Source of the DNA: Desulfatiglandales bacterium
Lineage (GTDB): Bacteria; Desulfobacterota; DSM-4660; Desulfatiglandales; Desulfatiglandaceae
DNA: 64,000 nt
Assembly: GCA_963662465.1 (NCBI GenBank)
Contig: OY759599.1
Location: 7,296,001-7,360,000 of the forward strand
Direction of reading: 5' to 3'
The translations under genes and the position numbers were made by a program. Position 1 is the first letter of the stretch, and the number at the start of each line of letters is the position of its first letter. Below the pieces are notes generated by a model, which did no database searches, was not told where the DNA came from, and saw nothing but the letters and a program-made list of their open reading frames with translations. This document shows, piece by piece, positions 37,151-46,153 of this stretch.

Positions 37151-39352
37151 TTGGGTTTAGATCTTATCGTTCGCGTTTTAAATTTGCACTTCGATGAATT
37201 TCAAAATTTGGTAGAATGTACACTCGACACAGGGGATGATGTTCCGAAAACTGTGGATATGGAACCCCGTGTCGTCGTACTTGTCGAATAGTAATTCATG
37301 AATCTATCCCAAAAATCCATTTTGCAATATTATTAGGCTTTACCATCAAAAACGTTAGAAAAATTTACGTTTTTTAACTTTCATGAAATCATTGCAAGCT
37401 CCTGAGTTAACAGCCCTAATCCTTTATTGAGGAGTGAGTAAGCAGCTTCAATTTGAGATGGTTGCTCGGCGCCCTTGATAGGTTGCTTTTTGATAACCCC
37501 TGAAATCATTGGGTTTTTGAAATGGAGTTCAGAGCAAATTGAGAGCCATAGCCATTTCCAGCCTGTGTCCGTAACCCTATAGAATGACATGTTATTCTTC
37601 TTTTCGACAATTCCCCGGACCCTCAATTTGTTCATTTCATACCGGATTTGTGCAGGATTTCGAAAAGATTGGGGGAGGCTGTTGAGAAGATCCACTGTCC
37701 TGAAGCCATATGCATGGTATTTTGGCTTTAGAAGCTCTTGGGCCAGGGCGGTCTGACGATCTTTTCTGAAGTCCGGTGGGGTCACGTTGCGGCCAAGATG
37801 ATCTGAGACAGGCTTTTTGTAACGCTCCTCTTCTCCTTCTGAAATAGAGGCGATATCCACATCGGCACAGCATTCTAAAAATCGATCATTACATTCCACG
37901 CCTTCCCAAAGATAGGCCTGTAGATAGAGGACAGGTTTTTTAAGCCCCAGCGATTTGGGGTTATTGATGGTGGTCTCGGTGCGGATGTAATACCCGGTTT
38001 TGTTGTATTGCTTGATGGAGTTGCCTCGGAACCAGTGTTTGATGCACGCATTATTGTCATATAGCCGCCAGAAGGTCTTGGATGTTGATCGGCGATGGAG
38101 CCGACGATTGAAAATCTGAGCAATGGTCTCGGGCAATCCGAGACTGTGGAACTTATCCAAGAGCCTTTCAAAGAGGCTGGTGCAAAAACGCGCGGAACGA
38201 AACACAATATTAGAAGAAACTTCGACCTGGCTTGAATACCAGTCGTGATAAAGGAATTTGGATCGCCCAAGTCGGGTTGACATTTCCTTTGTCGAATTTG
38301 AAGAAAATATTCATCCAGTAGTTGATCCTGTTAAGTACAGCTCTGCCAGTGAGAGACGCAGCGGCTTTTTGAAGGGCCTCTGGATTTTCAACGTCAACAA
38401 ATGCGTTTTCGCTGAGCCTATATTTGATGCCAGCAATTCCCGCTCACCCTTGAAAGGCCTGAAAACAGTACATTTTGGTATTTCCTTTTCGTAAAGGTTT
38501 ACATTGAATGAATAACCCAGAAAGGCTTTTTTCTCAAATTTTCAAAAGAAATAAAAAAAAATTGGCATCTTTCAGGAAAAACTGGACTTTGGGAGCAACT
38601 TGAACGATGATTACTCCCTATGGGAATCACACGCCAAGAAAGAAAAAAACAAAAGGGCAAGATTGGAATTCGCAAGCATCTAAATGCAGACGCAATGCTC
38701 AAACGTTTGCATAAAGATTTTTCGGAGGTGTCTGACTATCGTGAGGATCCCGAAATCCCAATGGCGGATGCACTGATGTCCGGGTTTTCAATGTTTTCGC
38801 TCAAGGATCCCTCATTGCTTGCTTTTGATGGAAGAAGAAAAACCGATAGTAATCTGGCTGGAATATACCATATAGGAAAAGTTCCTTGCGACAGTCAGAT
38901 GCGCACTATTCTTGATGAAGTACTCGCAGAAGAACTTCGGAAACCGTTTAGGAATATCTTCTGGGAACTGCAAAGAGGAAAAGTGCTTGAACGTATGACT
39001 TTTTTCGAAGGATGTTATCTTCTATCTTTGGATGGAACGGGCTTTTTCTCTTCGAAAAAGCTCTACTCTGATAATTGTTTGGTAAAAGTATCGAAAAAAA
39101 CCCTTCAACGCTAATCAAAACTGAACCAAGTTTGCTAATGGAAATTGAACCATTGGCTGTCACCGCCAGTGAGTACGGCCCTCAGGTATAGCGGACGATG
39201 AGGGATCCATAAGTGGCGGCAAAGGAGTCGTTGATGTAGATTTACTTTTCAATAAATTTTTATAAAATCTATTTTCTTTGGATTTGGTTTTCTTCTTCCA
39301 AGACAGAGGCTTGGTTAAGTGGAAATGCGATTTACTTTGTAGAATGGATGGT

Positions 39353-39388
39353 GAAGGCCCGAAGTAGCCGCTTCGGGCCTTCTTTTTT
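39353..39388 (+). terminator. Intrinsic terminator inside the transposon left end
   Basis: GAAGGCCCGAAG-TAGCCG-CTTCGGGCCTTC-TTTTTT. Confidence 0.8.
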
Positions 39389-39464
39389 GACCACCGGATA
39401 GAGCCGGAAGCCACACACACGCCAATTTTATATAAGTGTGTTTCCGGCCAATTGCAAGGCCGGA

Positions 39465-39881
39465 ATGATGGGAGATGTCCTTTTAAGAGTGGTTCAATGC
39501 CGATGTTGTGGTTGCTTTTTTCACGTCTGTCGGTCGTGTTGGCGTGGCCAGGCCTATTGTGGGGAACGATGTCGCAGGATACGCCAAAGACAGCTGCACC
39601 GGAAAGCTCAGGGGAAATACCGCAATTCGAAAAAAGGGAAAGAGCGCCGTCGTTTGTACGAAAAAACAAAAAAATCCAAAAAAAATGGACTGAACCCTGG
39701 TGATGATAGTTCAACACCTCAAAAAGACTGTGATATTGAACCCAAAAAGCGGTCGGGGAACCGACCCAGCTGTCTTTTTTGCGGGTCGATCGGGGTTGTT
39801 GTGGACCATTTTCCTCGCCGTGCTTATGCAGGGAGGGTTTTTTCAGATGTAACAGGCTTTGAGAAAACCCCATATCCATGA
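39465..39881 (+). CDS. Cys-rich basic hypothetical protein (putative zinc finger)
   Basis: CRCCG..CRSCWRGQAYC..C, a basic helix and C-terminal CLFC; first gene of a tightly packed operon. Confidence 0.7.
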   Translation: MMGDVLLRVVQCRCCGCFFHVCRSCWRGQAYCGERCRRIRQRQLHRKAQGKYRNSKKGKERRRLYEKTKKSKKNGLNPGDDSSTPQKDCDIEPKKRSGNRPSCLFCGSIGVVVDHFPRRAYAGRVFSDVTGFEKTPYP

Positions 39882-39893
39882 CAGGAGAAAAAA

Positions 39894-40313
39894 ATGATCA
39901 AAAAAAGAGTCCTTTTTCCCGAAAGAGTGCGTGTCATCAATGGAAGCTTCGGCTTTCTGGAGCATCGTTTTTTGAGAAACGGCTTTTGGGAGAGCCTGAA
40001 TCATCATGAGCTGCTGCTCTACATTTTTCTGGTGTTGGTATCTGACAAAAACGGGCTCTCTTATTATGGTTACGACAGAATCTGCCGGATTTTAAAGGTG
40101 CATTTGGATCAATATATCGATGCCCGCGATGGCTTGTTGGACAAGGATCTGATTGGGTTTGATGGCCGTCTGTTTCAGGTTCTTTCGCTTCCCAGACGTC
40201 CTGTGATTGTGAAACAGGTAAAGGAGATCCGGCAAGGAAATTGGGTCAGTCTTGGAGAAACCATAGAGGAAATCTTTCGGGAGACTGGGTATGGAATCCA
40301 TCCGAACCGTTGA
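39894..40313 (+). CDS. Hypothetical winged-helix protein (replication-initiator N-terminus-like)
   Basis: AGGAG RBS; LNHHELLLYIFL..GLSYYGYDRICRIL..ARDGLLDKDLI pattern. Confidence 0.7.
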   Translation: MIKKRVLFPERVRVINGSFGFLEHRFLRNGFWESLNHHELLLYIFLVLVSDKNGLSYYGYDRICRILKVHLDQYIDARDGLLDKDLIGFDGRLFQVLSLPRRPVIVKQVKEIRQGNWVSLGETIEEIFRETGYGIHPNR

Positions 40314-41175
40314 TATTCATTTGCTGGAGTTGCGTTACGCTCATTGCCGGATAATGAATCACCAGGCTTTAAAGCGATTGAGGGATTCCATCGAAACTTA
40401 CGGGCAGATCGTTCCGGCCCTGGCTATTGAAGAAAAAGACAAACTGATTCTGATTGATGGCTACCTGCGTGTTCGAGCGCTTTGTGCTTGTGGAAAGGAC
40501 CGGATATGTGTCCAATTCTCAAAAGAAAACGAACAAAATGCCATGTTTTCGCTTTTAACCAAGGCCAATGAACGGCAATGGGAAGTCATTGAGCAGTCTG
40601 TTTTACTTCAGGAATTACATCGGCGTTTTGGGTGCAGCCTCTCCCATATTGCAACCCGAATAGGGCGCGACAAGAGTTTTGTAAAACGGCGGCTGGACCT
40701 GGTTGAAGCCCTGCCGGAAAATATTTTGAGAACCGTGATTGCAGGCTCACTTTCAACCTGGGCTGCCAGCCGTGTCATGGCGCCGTTGGCGCGCGCCAAC
40801 GGTGAAGACGCACAAAAACTGTTGGCCCACCTGGAAAAAGAACCTCTATCCACAAGGGAACTGGCCCGTTTCTACGCACATTACCAGAAAAGCAACCGGT
40901 CTGTTCGAGACCACATGCTGGAAAATCCATCCCTTTTCATAAAAGTTCTCGAACAAAGAACCCAGTCTAAACAAGCCAAAGAAGTTCATGATGGACCGGA
41001 AGGCAAATGGTTCAAGGATATTGAAATGGTATATGCGGTTCTCAAACGTCTGGTGAAAACCGTTTCGCATGTCCATTACCCAAAAAGCGATCAGTTGAAG
41101 AAACAAACGCTCAAAACCTGGGTGAAAAAGATAGAAAAACAAGCACTGGAACTCAAGAAAGCGACCCAATTATGA
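40291..41175 (+). CDS. ParB/Spo0J-like protein
   Basis: LRDSIETYGQIVP..LIDGYLRVRAL (ParB N-domain GxxR motif) and HTH IATRIGRDKSFVKRRL. Confidence 0.85.
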   Translation: MESIRTVDIHLLELRYAHCRIMNHQALKRLRDSIETYGQIVPALAIEEKDKLILIDGYLRVRALCACGKDRICVQFSKENEQNAMFSLLTKANERQWEVIEQSVLLQELHRRFGCSLSHIATRIGRDKSFVKRRLDLVEALPENILRTVIAGSLSTWAASRVMAPLARANGEDAQKLLAHLEKEPLSTRELARFYAHYQKSNRSVRDHMLENPSLFIKVLEQRTQSKQAKEVHDGPEGKWFKDIEMVYAVLKRLVKTVSHVHYPKSDQLKKQTLKTWVKKIEKQALELKKATQL

Positions 41176-42554
41176 TCCGACAATCCAAAAAAGATGCCAT
41201 TGTGGAATTGAAAAAAACCGGCATGAGTTTGCGCGACATCGCCAAAACCCTGAAGGCCGGTCGCAATACCGTCACGAAGGTTTTAGATGATCATGACGAA
41301 GAGGCGGTACCCCAAAGGAACTCCCGGTATGAAGAACATGTCCCGTTGATCCGCGAGCTTTTCAAGGAATGTAAAGGAAATGCCGTGCGAGTAGCCGAGG
41401 AACTGGAAAGCCGCCAACAGATCAAAATCCCTTATCAGAGTCTGACCTGGATTATGAGAAAGTACGAGATCCGGGAACGTAAAAAAAGACGGGCGGGCCA
41501 ATACCATTTTAAACCCGGTCAGGAGATGCAGCATGATACGTCACCCCATCTGGTTGTCATTAATGGGAAAAAAATGTCGACCCAGTGCGCGTCCCTGACC
41601 CTGGCCTTTTGCCGAAGGATTTTTATTCAGTATTACCCCTGTTTTACCCGGTTTGAGTGCAAGGTTTTCCTAAAAAAAGCATTCGAGTTTATGGACGGGG
41701 TGTGTTCCCGGTGCATGGTTGACAACACCAATGTTATTGTGGCCGGCGGCACCGGGCCTGATGCATTGATTGCGCCTGAAATGAAATACTTCGGCGATAT
41801 GTATGGAACCCGGTTTGAGGCCCATGCTGTAGGAGACGCCAATCGAAGTGCCCGTGTGGAAAGGCCTTTTCATTTTGTGGAAAACAATTTTCTTCCCGGT
41901 AGAACATTTGTTAGCTGGCAGGATTTGAACCGGCAGGCAATCGACTGGTGCCGGAATACAAGCGATAAAAAGTTTAAACGGGCTTTAGGGATGACGCCGG
42001 ATGAGGCCTATGTCATTGAAAAGCCATATCTCATTGATTTACCGGCATACCAGCCGCCAGTCTATGTGGCAGAACACAGGGTAGCCGATGTTCAGGGATA
42101 TGTGCACTTGGACACCAACCGCTATTCAGTCCCTGAAGCGCTGATTGGGAACTCCCTGGAAGTACAGAAACATTGGCTCAAGGTCATCGTTTACGACAAA
42201 AACACAAAAGTGGCGGAACATGACCGCATACTGGATAAACGCAACACCCGAACAACCCTGCCCGGTCACCATGTTCCCATTCGAAGAAAAAAAGATCCCC
42301 GAATCCCTTCAAAAGAAGAACAGCTGTTGACGGGAGAGGATGCCATCCTGGATGAGTATGTGGCTGAACTGAAGAAAAGAAGTCACGGTCGCGGTGTGGT
42401 CAAGTTACGTCGGTTGCTTCATCTGAAACGCACTTATCCCGGGGAACCTTTTTTGAAAGCCATAACACAGGCGCTTAAATATGGACTTTTTGATTTGTCG
42501 CGTCTGGAAAACATTATTCTCGATTATATCGCGGGAGACTTTTTTGATCTATGA
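41172..42554 (+). CDS. istA: IS21-family transposase
   Basis: N-terminal HTH, PGQEMQHD, VDN, RVERPFHFVENNF and NRYSVP. Confidence 0.9.
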   Translation: MIRQSKKDAIVELKKTGMSLRDIAKTLKAGRNTVTKVLDDHDEEAVPQRNSRYEEHVPLIRELFKECKGNAVRVAEELESRQQIKIPYQSLTWIMRKYEIRERKKRRAGQYHFKPGQEMQHDTSPHLVVINGKKMSTQCASLTLAFCRRIFIQYYPCFTRFECKVFLKKAFEFMDGVCSRCMVDNTNVIVAGGTGPDALIAPEMKYFGDMYGTRFEAHAVGDANRSARVERPFHFVENNFLPGRTFVSWQDLNRQAIDWCRNTSDKKFKRALGMTPDEAYVIEKPYLIDLPAYQPPVYVAEHRVADVQGYVHLDTNRYSVPEALIGNSLEVQKHWLKVIVYDKNTKVAEHDRILDKRNTRTTLPGHHVPIRRKKDPRIPSKEEQLLTGEDAILDEYVAELKKRSHGRGVVKLRRLLHLKRTYPGEPFLKAITQALKYGLFDLSRLENIILDYIAGDFFDL

Positions 42555-43270
42555 AAAAGAAAATTGAACAGTTACTCATTGATTTGAAGTTTAAAGGCAT
42601 GCTGAAGGCTCTCGAAGAACAGTTGGCTTCGGCTGAAAAGAACGGTTTTTCCATTCACGAGGTCATCTACAATCTCCTGGCTGAGGAATTACGTTTCCGG
42701 CAGGAGCGCAGCATGATCTATCGGGTCCAGATTGCAAAGCTTCCATGGGAATGGACCCTCAACTCCTTTCCGTTTGATCTTCAGCCGGGAATACAGAAGA
42801 GCCGGATCATGACGTTGTCCGGCCTTGACTTTATCAGCCGAAGAGAAAACATCGTGTTCCATGGAAAAACCGGCGTCGGCAAAACGGGATTGGCCGTGGG
42901 GATCCTTCGTCAAGCCATTATTGCCGGGTACCGGGGGCGTTTTTATAATGTTCAGGATTTGCTGGATCAGCTCTATGCGTCTTTGGCAGATCGGTCCACC
43001 CCGAAACTCCTCAATGCCCTTTGCAGATATGACCTGCTTCTGCTCGATGAACTGGGATACCTGACCCTCAAAAAAGAGCAGATGAACGCCTTTTTTAAAC
43101 TCATGAAAGATCGCTATGAAGCCGGTCGGTCCACAATTATTACGACCAATCTTCAACCTGAACAATGGTATTCGCTGCTTGAACCAAAGGACATGGTCGA
43201 TGCCTTGCTGGATCGTCTCAACCATCGCTGCATCAACATTCATATTGATGGTCCTTCCCTCAGAAAATGA
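42551..43270 (+). CDS. istB: IS21 helper AAA+ ATPase
   Basis: GKTGVGKT, LLLLDELGY, IITTN, ALLDRL and GPSLR. Confidence 0.95.
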   Translation: MKKKIEQLLIDLKFKGMLKALEEQLASAEKNGFSIHEVIYNLLAEELRFRQERSMIYRVQIAKLPWEWTLNSFPFDLQPGIQKSRIMTLSGLDFISRRENIVFHGKTGVGKTGLAVGILRQAIIAGYRGRFYNVQDLLDQLYASLADRSTPKLLNALCRYDLLLLDELGYLTLKKEQMNAFFKLMKDRYEAGRSTIITTNLQPEQWYSLLEPKDMVDALLDRLNHRCINIHIDGPSLRK

Positions 43271-43368
43271 GATGTTCGCCAAAGGGCCGGTTTTGAGGTC
43301 TGAATATCACCGGTCTGTTTGAATCTCGTTACACGAATATCAGAAATTACCTTGTCTTGGAGCTTGAA

Positions 43369-43566
43369 ATGAGAGGTGGAAAACGGGTAGGCGCCGGCCG
43401 AAGAAAGAAACCGGAACATTTGAGACGTGAACTGCTCACCATTCGTCTCCCCAAATGGATGATTCTACAGCTGAAAAAAAACGGGGAAATTGGATATTTG
43501 ATTGAGGATCAATTGGCGAAGGGAGGCCTCCTGAATTTACCGGACGACTATGACATAGACAAATAG
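43369..43566 (+). CDS. Small putative DNA-binding protein
   Basis: RGGKRVGAGRRK basic motif followed by TIRLP (ribbon-helix-like); GGAG RBS. Confidence 0.55.
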   Translation: MRGGKRVGAGRRKKPEHLRRELLTIRLPKWMILQLKKNGEIGYLIEDQLAKGGLLNLPDDYDIDK

Positions 43567-45771
43567 TTCCTCAATAAGCATTGCCCTTAACCGAAAAATC
43601 TAATCCCCTCTTCTCTGCCATCACCATATTGATGGTATCCTCATCACTGATTCTTCAACCAGAACGCTACGTGTCTCACCAGCATTTTTAAAATACCATC
43701 TGATATACTCTTTCATGCAACCTCTAACAAATTTACAAGAAAACCCTTCTAAAAGGAAAAGACCAGTGCGCAATATCTGGTTCCGTTTGGAGTAGCAAAA
43801 CTGGTTCCATTTTGGTTAGCGCCCAAGAAAAAACCGGCGAAAAGACCTATTACCAGCAGATGCTGGGGGCAGCGATTGTGCATCCCGATTTCAAAGAGGT
43901 CATTCCGCTTGCTCCGGAATTCATAGTAAAGCAGGACGGCCAAAGCAAAAACGACTGTGAGCGTAATGCAGCGAAACGTTTCTTGAGTAAGCTGAAAAGG
44001 GATCATCCGCATCTGTCTCTCATCATTACAGAAGACGCGTTAAGTTCGAATGCACCCCATATAGAGGAAATACAAAAGCAAAACTTTCATTATATTCTGG
44101 GAGTTAAACGAGGCGATCATCCTTTCTTATTTAATCATGTCGAACAAGCGCGGGTAAATGGTGGCGTTACTGAATTCGAATTGGTCGACAAAGAGGATCC
44201 GGAAAAAACGCATCGCTTCCGATTCCTTAACCATGTACCTCTCAACGCCTCTAACAAGGATGTACTGGTTAACTTTCTGGAATATTGGGAAATTACACCG
44301 GAAAAAACACAGCATTTCAGTTGGGTGACTGATTTTATCATAGAAAAGGACAATGCATACGAGCTGATGCGAGGCGGTCGTGCGAGATGGAAGATCGAAA
44401 ATGAAACCTTCAATACTCTTAAAAACCAAGGTTATCATTTTGAACATAACTTCGGCCTTGGCAAGAAGAATCTGAGTGTTGTTTTCGCGATGCTCATGAT
44501 GATTGCATTTCTGGTTGATCAAACGCAGCAGCTTTGTTGTCCCTTATTTCGAGCTGCATGGCAGAAACTCGGTTCCAAAAGAGAATTATGGGAACGTATG
44601 AGAGCTCTGTTTAAAGATTTTGAATTCAAATCCATGAGGATGCTCTATGAAGCTCTCTATTATGGTGTGAAATTCCAAGCGCCAGTCATTTTGTATGACA
44701 CTGGGTGAATTTGCGATGTCCAATTTGCATACAAGAGTGCTCTCAATAAAAAATCTGGAGTTTCCGGAAATGGATATCTCTGTCCTGACTCAGATCTTTT
44801 TACGTTCTTTCTCTTCTGGAAAGCCTCAATCTGTGAAAAATCGAAGGAGCCAACAGTGAATTTGGAGTAATCTTCTGAAAAGTTTTTGATCTCACCGTTT
44901 ATTTTTCAAATTTGTGTTACAAACTCGGTGAGTAAATTCCTGAGCGGGAATTGCTGATTTGATGCCTTGTTTGTCGAGCTGGAGTTGAATGGCATTGTGG
45001 CCGTTGAAATAGAATTCTGCACGAAAAGGAAGGTAGGAAGAGATTTTGAGGTAGCAGAGGCCACCGAGAAGGGCATCGTGCAAGTAGATGTAATACTGCT
45101 TCACCGGCTTTCTGCAGTCATAGATTCGTTCATAGGGCTTTCCGGCTTTTGAAGTGAGTTGCCTGCAGGCAAATGTTCTAACCGGTTCTTTGTCCGTAAG
45201 GATGCAAAACACATGGTTTCCTTTTCCTGTAAAGGCCTTGGCGTATTTTTGTTCCACGAATTTTGATTTTGCGCCGTCAGTGCCACCCCCTTCAGAGGGC
45301 CACCAGTGAATGGGGATATTGTTGTTCCGGGCTACCTTTTGAATATGACCATTGAGTTGGTCGGTTAGAATCCTCATTACACCGTTTGACAATCCTTTGA
45401 ATCCGAGAGTCCTGAGGAGCCTGACAATGCCTGCTGGAGAAAAGAGGGAGAGAATGTAGCCTCGAATAATAACCCGATCGAAGCAGAAATATTTGAACTT
45501 GATATTTTCTGAGAATTGATTCAAAAATGAATTCTTCATGGGTGTATCCTCCGGTGAGGGAATGTTAGCTAAACAATCCATACCGGATCACCCATGAAAT
45601 TTCAAATCAAAGAATGGGATTTTAGGCAGGGGGTTAAGAGACTTCAGGATGGTCAGATGACGCCAAAAGCTTCATCAACTTTAATATCCGGGATTTGCCC
45701 CGGCCAAAAATATAACCATCATGTCATTAGCCCCCTGCCTACAGCCCTTTTCGGAACTTTAGTTTGGTAAA

Positions 45772-46153
45772 TATATGAGGCTTTTCCAGAATTGTCCGAT
45801 TCCTGATGGAGCTTTTTGACCCCCGGCATTTTCTCGGCTTCCTTGCTGATTTTGATGCCATCGCCAGCCAATAGCAATCGGCCATCAATCTTAACCAGTG
45901 GGCAACTGGAGAGAACAATTTTCCACCAGCGGTGCATGATGGTTTTCAATTCCCAGGACGATGCTCTGAAAAACCCGAGAAGAGACGTGTAAAACCGAGG
46001 TTCAATGCCCAACCATCGGATAAAAGAGCTGACGCCATATTGGTCCAGCCTGACGGTAAAGCCAAAAATTACAATCACGAACCAGTCAAAAGTTGCCCTG
46101 CGGCTGAAACAGGATCTGAATTGTTCGAGTATCCAACTGATCTCGCTTATCAT
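45772..46153 (-). pseudogene. IS701/IS4-superfamily transposase, N-terminal fragment
   Basis: FRSCFSRRATFDWF..AGDGIKISKEAEKMPGVKKLHQESDNSGK, cut off at the IR of the next element. Confidence 0.75.

Follow-up and report, generated by a model that had tools for sequence, protein, structure and literature searches.

What does a ParB-like protein do on an insertion sequence, and does it belong to the machinery that moves the element or is it cargo? The question is raised by a 4,725-bp element in the genome of a Desulfatiglandales bacterium (GenBank assembly GCA_963662465.1; 8.16 Mb in one contig, OY759599.1), lying in a stretch of 64,000 nt at positions 7,296,001–7,360,000 of the forward strand, which we call the window. 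Unlike the two-gene istA-istB layout, six open reading frames (ORFs) are found within its ends, as genes for a Cys-rich zinc-finger protein, a winged-helix protein (wHTH) and a ParB-like protein precede istA and istB and a small basic ORF follows them. A preliminary description made from the sequence had proposed that this unit moved as one piece and that the ParB-like protein and its partners might be core transposition or targeting factors of an IS21 subgroup and not passengers. Here we report that the element is an active member of the IS21 family with the core zinc finger–ParB–IstA–IstB, and that its parB gene contains a conserved palindrome.

ParB in the core of an IS21 subgroup

In order to see which of the genes stay with the transposase, we selected loci by IstA alone, using an alignment taken mostly from this clade, and kept the best 80 of 588 metagenome matches (45–70% identity), many of them on short contigs. 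In 74 of these 80 loci parB lies directly upstream of istA, and in the other six the start of istA is less than 180 bp away from the contig end. The wHTH gene was present in 8/80, the small ORF in 1/80 and a CHC2 or primase gene in 0/80. Among distant IstA loci from viral contigs (23–28% identity) ParB was found in 0/21. For 55 loci, 22 of 29 supported splits are common to the trees of IstA and ParB, with one conflict, which is similar to the agreement between IstA and IstB (20/29, one conflict), and parB is under purifying selection with a dN/dS of 0.20–0.27 against four relatives (wHTH, 0.12–0.28; zinc finger, 0.27–0.57). ParB as a core component, as proposed in the preliminary description, is thus borne out by co-occurrence, tree agreement and selection, and parB is inherited together with istA. 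From the co-occurrence of ParB and the turnover of wHTH and small ORF it follows that the core is zinc finger–ParB–IstA–IstB, and the element studied here is a five-gene variant of this core plus a passenger. Two points weaken this picture. Linkage alone would also yield matching trees, and the trees of zinc finger and IstA (41 loci) match poorly (r 0.11, five conflicts), which maybe is partly noise from a short protein and which weakens the idea of a fixed partner role. Taken together, the data support ParB and a zinc finger of some type as the core of an IS21 subgroup and not as passengers; from the partners suggested before, the zinc finger is retained in this general sense, whereas wHTH and small ORF come and go.

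A second ParB-bearing IS21 element is present in the same genome at 8094473–8099500 and 6813482–6822866, with ParB, IstA, IstB, a CHC2 finger and a small ORF. Its IstA and ParB show 31% and 22% identity, respectively, its ends are CT..AG, its duplication is 7 bp long and it carries a palindrome of its own. The gene order of this element, small upstream ORF (zinc-finger type), ParB, IstA, IstB and CHC2 finger, is also that of an element on a Desulforapulum plasmid. A tblastn search of plasmids with ParB gave no match. The ParB profile collects 462 clusters at 50% identity (E up to 1e-30), a number counted by profile alone and not by IS21 context. In the literature searched, whose scope left out ISfinder, most subscription papers and supplements, we found no description of ParB-bearing IS21 elements and no report of an orphan ParB regulator on an insertion sequence, and the RefSeq annotation of one relative gives the genes without an insertion sequence name.

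A palindrome inside parB

ParB sites can lie within genes, as does a parS inside the spo0J gene of Bacillus. The parB gene of the element contains a perfect 16-bp palindrome, and its codons are unusually fixed: A167 (GCG) and R168 (CGC) are invariant (100%) and N170 is AAC in 97% of the sequences, compared to medians of about 50–60% elsewhere, while Leu166 is encoded by TTG in 36/38, whereas CTG prevails elsewhere. A perfect 16-mer occurs in 34 of 49 parB genes and at least 7 of the 8 pairs are kept in 45 of them; synonymous resampling gave a mean of 0.4 perfect 16-mers and a maximum of 4. In a wider set the numbers are 52/70 and 66/70. In total, 56 perfect palindromes fall into 60 kb of parB vs 4 into 156 kb of istA and istB, and variants of the site alter both arms together. 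In the distant clade with 22% ParB identity another perfect palindrome, GTT(C/T)ATACGTAT(G/A)AAC, occupies the same codons in five of six genes examined.

The site also covaries with the helix-turn-helix (HTH) region of ParB. For this analysis we used 69 non-redundant genes and a tree built without the helix and site regions. Residue Q128 is accompanied by A at site base 2 in 16/16 genes and residues other than Q in 1/53, and R133 is accompanied by G at site base 4 in 58/58 genes, residues other than R in 0/11. These paired changes recur about six times on the tree and residue 128 tops all columns; the corresponding Fisher value overstates the effect because kin are not independent. Residue 128, aligned via Spo0J, is presumably the equivalent of Caulobacter R173, and residues 128 and 133 are located at or beside the specificity positions of ParB and Noc. 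According to the available text of PMC7383237, changing R173 of Caulobacter ParB to Gln allows reading of the adenine in the Noc site. The element resembles the ParB-parS and Noc-NBS systems as described there in the N-domain plus HTH fold, the 16-bp palindrome and the Q-for-A rule at the R173 equivalent. It is unlike them in its other site sequence, in having one site per element, in the lack of ParA and of a ParA-binding motif, and in the replaced catalytic and ring-closure residues.

The genome holds the site 26 times, and 25 of these lie within copies of the element. All 36 sites of a relative are in parB matches, and of 80 related genomes 76 lack the site, and the three that have a single one carry it in parB, in one case a fragment. 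The 26th site (genome 3732981–3733252, locus L253) is non-coding and lies 256 bp inside an orphan right-end-like sequence for which no left end was found. Next to it are two ATPase genes of the BrxC/D family and a fragment resembling comM, and the locus is possibly a relic or a non-autonomous element. Viral matches to the palindrome were in unrelated contexts.

The simplest reading is that the element's ParB reads the palindrome in its own gene. As the site hardly occurs outside elements, a role of ParB in cis is probable, and not one as a target selector. This reading is weakened by a distant ParB (L194) having no palindrome at the same codons, and by site base 2 altering residue 166, so that the covariation could be partly one within the protein.

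The ParB-like protein

A structural model of the protein (pLDDT 87) matches ParB, Noc and KorB, with a Foldseek E of 6e-10 to Myxococcus ParB, and the Spo0J profile gives an E of 2.5e-15; the N-domain also resembles sulfiredoxin. G57 and R60 from the Box II GxxR are kept in 49/49 and R95 in 47/49 IstA-linked ParB genes, and R60 and R95 align with Myxococcus R95 and R130. In the available text of bioRxiv 2021.05.05.442810 these two Myxococcus arginines are required for nucleotide binding, Q52 and E93 are catalytic, and R94, E126 and N127 serve ring closure. ParB is likely to bind a nucleotide. The CTP-dependent clamp suggested earlier is a different matter. The equivalents of Q52 (Box I), E93 (Box II) and E126 and N127 (Box III) are V41, Y58, K91 and A92; the first two of these positions are taken by hydrophobic residues, and R94, E126 and N127 correspond to variable or basic ones. 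With the ring-closure and hydrolysis residues replaced, ParB may bind its site without sliding, and a sliding CTP clamp is unproven for this protein. Near-invariant Q39 and D56 are close to the replaced catalytic positions and could substitute for them. The nucleotide specificity of ParB proteins is not predictable from sequence according to the available part of PMC12704722, the main text of which uses 'transpos' and 'IS21' zero times, and its supplements may list ParBs from IS21 elements. We found no ParA gene in the element, and a ParA-binding motif in 0/148 ParB cluster representatives.

Copies, ends and target duplications

The order of the genes, the ends and the target duplications were recovered at the positions assigned in the preliminary description (Table 1). 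All genes lie on the plus strand, with a 12-nt gap, a 23-nt overlap and then two ATGA overlaps from zinc finger to istB. The istA product matches NF033546 with an E of 2e-37 (129 bits, below the cut-off of 160) and an IS5376 IstA profile with an E of 2e-38, and its catalytic triad is unchanged across 49 sequences; the istB product matches PF01695 (E 4e-59) and NF038214 above its cut-off.

Table 1: Features of the element; positions refer to the window.
Feature	Position	Strand	Length	Remarks
Whole element	39103..43827		4,725 bp	zinc finger, wHTH, ParB-like, istA, istB, small ORF
Left target duplication copy AAAAAACC	39095..39102		8 bp	inside a DDE_Tnp_1-type host insertion sequence
Left end	39103..39153	+		begins CTT; two IstA-type repeats, spacing 24 bp
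Terminator-like hairpin	39353..39382			sequence conserved in ZnB-type elements
Stem-loop over ribosome-binding site (RBS) region of first gene	39442..39465	+		covaries in relatives
Cys-rich zinc-finger protein, ZnB type	39465..39881	+		start uncertain: 39438 GTG, 39465 or 39468 ATG
Winged-helix protein (wHTH)	39894..40313	+		HTH_36 below curated cut-off; exchangeable
ParB-like protein	40291..41175	+		ParB/Srx N-domain with DGxxR (DGYLR), HTH, helical C-terminus
Perfect palindrome GTTGGCGCGCGCCAAC	40785..40800		16 bp	parB codons 165–171; parS-like putative site of the element's ParB
istA, DDE transposase	41172..42554	+		triad D122, D184, E230
istB, AAA+ helper ATPase	42551..43270	+		
Small basic ORF	43369..43566 (alternative start 43357)	+		GGKRxGAGR motif; passenger
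Right end	43777..43827	-		finishes AAG-3' on the plus strand
Right target duplication copy AAAAAACC	43828..43835			

The left end reads CTTCAACGCT and the right end, as reverse complement, CTTGGGCGCT; the terminal arms of 44 nt are complementary at 77%, each end has two repeats with a spacing of 24 bp, and the inverted repeat is mismatched at bases 4–6. An intact copy of the interrupted host insertion sequence elsewhere in the genome holds a single AAAAAACC, which is the empty site and fixes the element ends as CTT..AAG. Both ends are present in 25 genomic copies, of which 21 are uninterrupted at 99.5–100% identity and four interrupted; fragments occur besides. All 25 copies read CTTCAACGCTAA..TTAGCGCCCAAG. 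Their duplications are 8 bp long in eight copies, 7 bp in nine, 6 bp in one and 5 bp in one, and six copies have none. The element moves as one unit with CT..AG ends and 7–8-bp duplications, confirming the movement as one piece. The clean 8-bp duplication described before holds at this locus; across the copies the duplication is 7–8 bp and not always 8, and the inverted repeat is imperfect. In sequencing run X1 the depth of the element contig is about 1,115–1,143 compared to 130 for the flank from the host insertion sequence, and the empty-site joint is present.

Two of the six copies without a duplication share a swapped 7-mer, which is the mark of an inversion. These two copies, inverted to each other (genome 5347739–6067428), border about 710 kb of inverted DNA with the host parS and parB in it, where the GC skew is flat.

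TG..CA ends are usual for IS21 elements and not universal. Among 85 distinct ends from the clade, searched with a matrix blind to the first six bases, 51 begin with CT and 30 with CC (together 81/85), and TG, TT, CG and CA were found once each, so that the non-TG ends noticed initially are a general feature of the clade. CT..AG ends with a duplication were also seen in four other elements, and a Caballeronia zinc finger–wHTH element has TG ends with a 5-bp duplication. As a ParB-less IS21 from the same genome has CC..GG ends and one ParB element has TG, non-TG ends as a ParB-specific trait are ruled out. The CT..AG ends make the element less of a 'canonical IS21'; its place in the family, which is given by IstA and IstB, is unaffected. 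IstA of IS5376 attacks from a CA-3' end (available text of PMC10122671); from the CT/CC ends it follows that the clade works from G-3'. In the parts of PMC10122671 and PMC11208146 that are available, IS21 and IS5376 share with the element an IstA of the DDE type, an AAA+ IstB, two repeats per end, a target duplication and the lack of a strong target sequence. The element differs from them in the three genes upstream of istA, the internal palindrome, CT/CC..AG/GG instead of TG..CA ends, its 4.7 kb and a duplication of 7–8 bp compared to 5 bp for IS5376.

A third IS21 element (genome 7835547–7839900, L187) is present in three copies; its IstA is fused to a Toprim domain, its ends read CC..GG and it has the small ORF twice. 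The left-end relic of a related element (genome 3458440–3461029) lies about 1 kb from a putative IscB-like ORF.

What ParB may do for the element

ParB most likely acts on the donor copy in cis, from the putative binding site in its own gene. A ParB dimer would bind the 16-bp palindrome, with a nucleoside triphosphate bound via GxxR, and every copy would bring its own docking site. From this internal site ParB might control its own operon from a distance, with the zinc finger as its probable partner, while IstA and IstB would do ordinary IS21 chemistry on the 3'-G end and wHTH and small ORF would be add-ons. For operon control, which draws on analogy, we see an even balance between right and wrong. 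The analogy is to KorB (RK2), VirB and BisD (ICEclc), which according to the available text of PMC12409273 and PMC12704722 are likewise ParB-fold proteins with intragenic palindromic sites on their own element; the bisS sites lie within genes and BisD regulates from them (PMC12409273). Unlike the element, these proteins act on plasmids or integrative and conjugative elements of tens of kb, and their CTP use has been shown. Against operon control, the non-coding 26th site would suit a role at the ends better than one in gene regulation.

This orphan right-end case also favours ParB at the internal site as a direct transposition cofactor, which would mark the donor, help to pair the ends or recruit IstA in the manner of an internal enhancer, or shield the element from IstB (target immunity), and so do the translational coupling of parB to istA, its retention throughout the clade sample and the presence of exactly one site per element in 49/49 examined loci. 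On the other hand, the orphan case is a single one, IS5376 IstA and IstB integrate pre-cleaved ends without further proteins (PMC10122671, as far as available), and the characterised orphan ParBs named in the available part of PMC12704722 regulate gene expression or cell division, and we regard a cofactor role as tentative and rather doubtful. Similarly doubtful in our estimation would be a large IS21 branch with transposition licensed by a nucleotide-gated ParB, which is loaded at an internal centromere-like site, labels the donor and delivers or primes its two ends, the transposase then joining a 3'-G instead of the usual CA-3' end. Improbable, by comparison, is a service of the accessory genes in a replicative step or in maintaining an excised circle or a cointegrate, with ParB and its site as a mini partition unit and wHTH as a RepA_N/DnaD-like initiator. 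The top structural matches of wHTH are RepA_N plasmid initiators (best Z 8.2, rmsd 4.8, 94 aligned residues) and a DnaB primosome protein (Z 7.4), with an E of 0.01; in related elements istB is followed by a CHC2 zinc finger or a DUF3991-Toprim gene, the third IS21 has its Toprim-IstA fusion, and the six copies without a duplication, two of them with a swap, would also fit. However, these fold matches are weak and within the range of generic wHTH matches, no iteron array was seen in the element, the gene counts in the 80 loci given above speak against it, and so does the lack of ParA and its binding motif; end-to-end (circle) junctions were found neither in the genome nor in the contigs of four runs, where contigs lose rare forms.

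That ParB and its partners select the target, as the preliminary description had also considered, is hardly to be expected. A repeated flank occurs at 15/25 copies vs 114/500 random sites and the flanks are lower in G+C (0.464 vs 0.496), but the excess of repeated flanks is common to other mobile families (9/12, 7/11, 5/10 and 7/10 in four control families with clean ends), there is no target consensus, no fork bias (15/25) and no significant clustering at host parS, and no copy is inserted within 140 kb of the one chromosomal site outside the elements. Targeting to repeats, low G+C, fork direction or host parS as a specific preference was ruled out, and the putative ParB site is nearly exclusive to elements, which together argues against the targeting idea. 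We give just as little credit to all upstream genes being passengers held by linkage: the small ORF does fit this view, and so for the most part does wHTH, but ParB is kept at 45–70% IstA identity and in the 31%-identity clade, is under purifying selection and has a co-evolving site.

Left-end leader

Under the preferred reading, with ParB at its internal site, expression may also be guarded at the left end. The terminator-like hairpin is of a type found in 15/17 ZnB loci and 0/42 ZnA loci, and its U-rich tail is on the minus strand in most relatives. The covariation of the stem over the RBS region was reached by 0/500 shuffles, and start regions with a folding z below −2 are frequent for the first gene (18/55) vs parB (5/67), istA (1/81) and istB (2/70). 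The available text of PMC4513863 describes a similar order for the IS200 left end, a terminator hairpin followed by an RBS-hiding stem-loop, possibly together with a small opposite-strand RNA. As in IS200, the terminator and the RBS-hiding stem would stop read-through from turning the operon on. The sequence and the transposase are unrelated to those of IS200; an Rfam search of the leader gave no match beyond one chance-level hit. Viral matches to the hairpin were in unrelated contexts.

A small RNA on the opposite strand is possible at this end. The minus strand of positions 39340–39430 of the window holds a candidate leftward small RNA with two hairpins, of about 78 nt within a range of 75–85 nt, and the G-U pairs and U tails of relatives favour this strand. 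A conserved TTGCAA in the loop of the RBS stem may serve as −35 of a leftward promoter; the last T of its candidate −10 is absent in most relatives. An antisense-triggered switch was ruled out, as masking of the predicted antisense-covered region left the RBS pairing unchanged in most of 14 leaders. Two metatranscriptome runs from one study cover the element and were unused as evidence, as DNA carry-over is possible.

Exchangeable genes and neighbouring elements

Both wHTH and the small ORF are exchangeable add-ons. We counted by eye what follows the wHTH gene at 28 loci in other genomes of this phylum: a ParB-less istA comes directly after it in 17, ParB in one and a tyrosine-recombinase cluster in one, the rest being incomplete or different. 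ESM Atlas places wHTH in HTH_36 clusters, and none was found in viral contigs. ZnB as the fixed partner of wHTH was ruled out by 11 hairpin-bearing ZnB loci without wHTH. The small ORF turns up in serine-recombinase elements of the genome as well as in two further IS21 elements, and is missing from the NaphS2 copies. In two tyrosine-recombinase trios (genome 284518–288273 and 3489873–3493976) a Cys-rich ORF and a member of this wHTH family come first.

For the Cys-rich zinc-finger protein no Pfam or NCBIfam family was found, and its ESM Atlas matches are unnamed clusters only. ZnA-type genes (e.g. L050:2002–2469) contain AKMD repeats that are also DNA repeats, with 2–4 copies in 25/41 ZnA and 0/16 ZnB loci, and these may be binding sites. 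After istB, two relatives have a DUF3991-Toprim primase-like gene (L050:6141–7037, there within the right end, and L075:2231–2792), and ten have acidic ORFs of 60–90 aa inside the right end (L112, L126, L127, L136, L139, L145, L148, L152, L156 and L159) that appear to form two families.

The surroundings of the element (37381–46153 of the window) are nested mobile DNA in a polysaccharide gene cluster: the host insertion sequence splits another transposase-like gene (44892–45581 and 37381–38283), which is adjoined by an IS701-like fragment.

Conclusion

IS21, a structurally solved model of ATPase-controlled transposition, is regarded as a system of two proteins; here, a broad IS21 branch keeps a third conserved protein plus a co-evolving DNA site. 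The natural series of ParB helix-site pairs follows the reading rule of ParB and Noc and is useful for specificity studies and for orthogonal DNA labels, and the clade is a set of DDE transposases working on non-CA ends. If transposition is indeed licensed by ParB, the ParB switch would be part of a DDE transposition machine.

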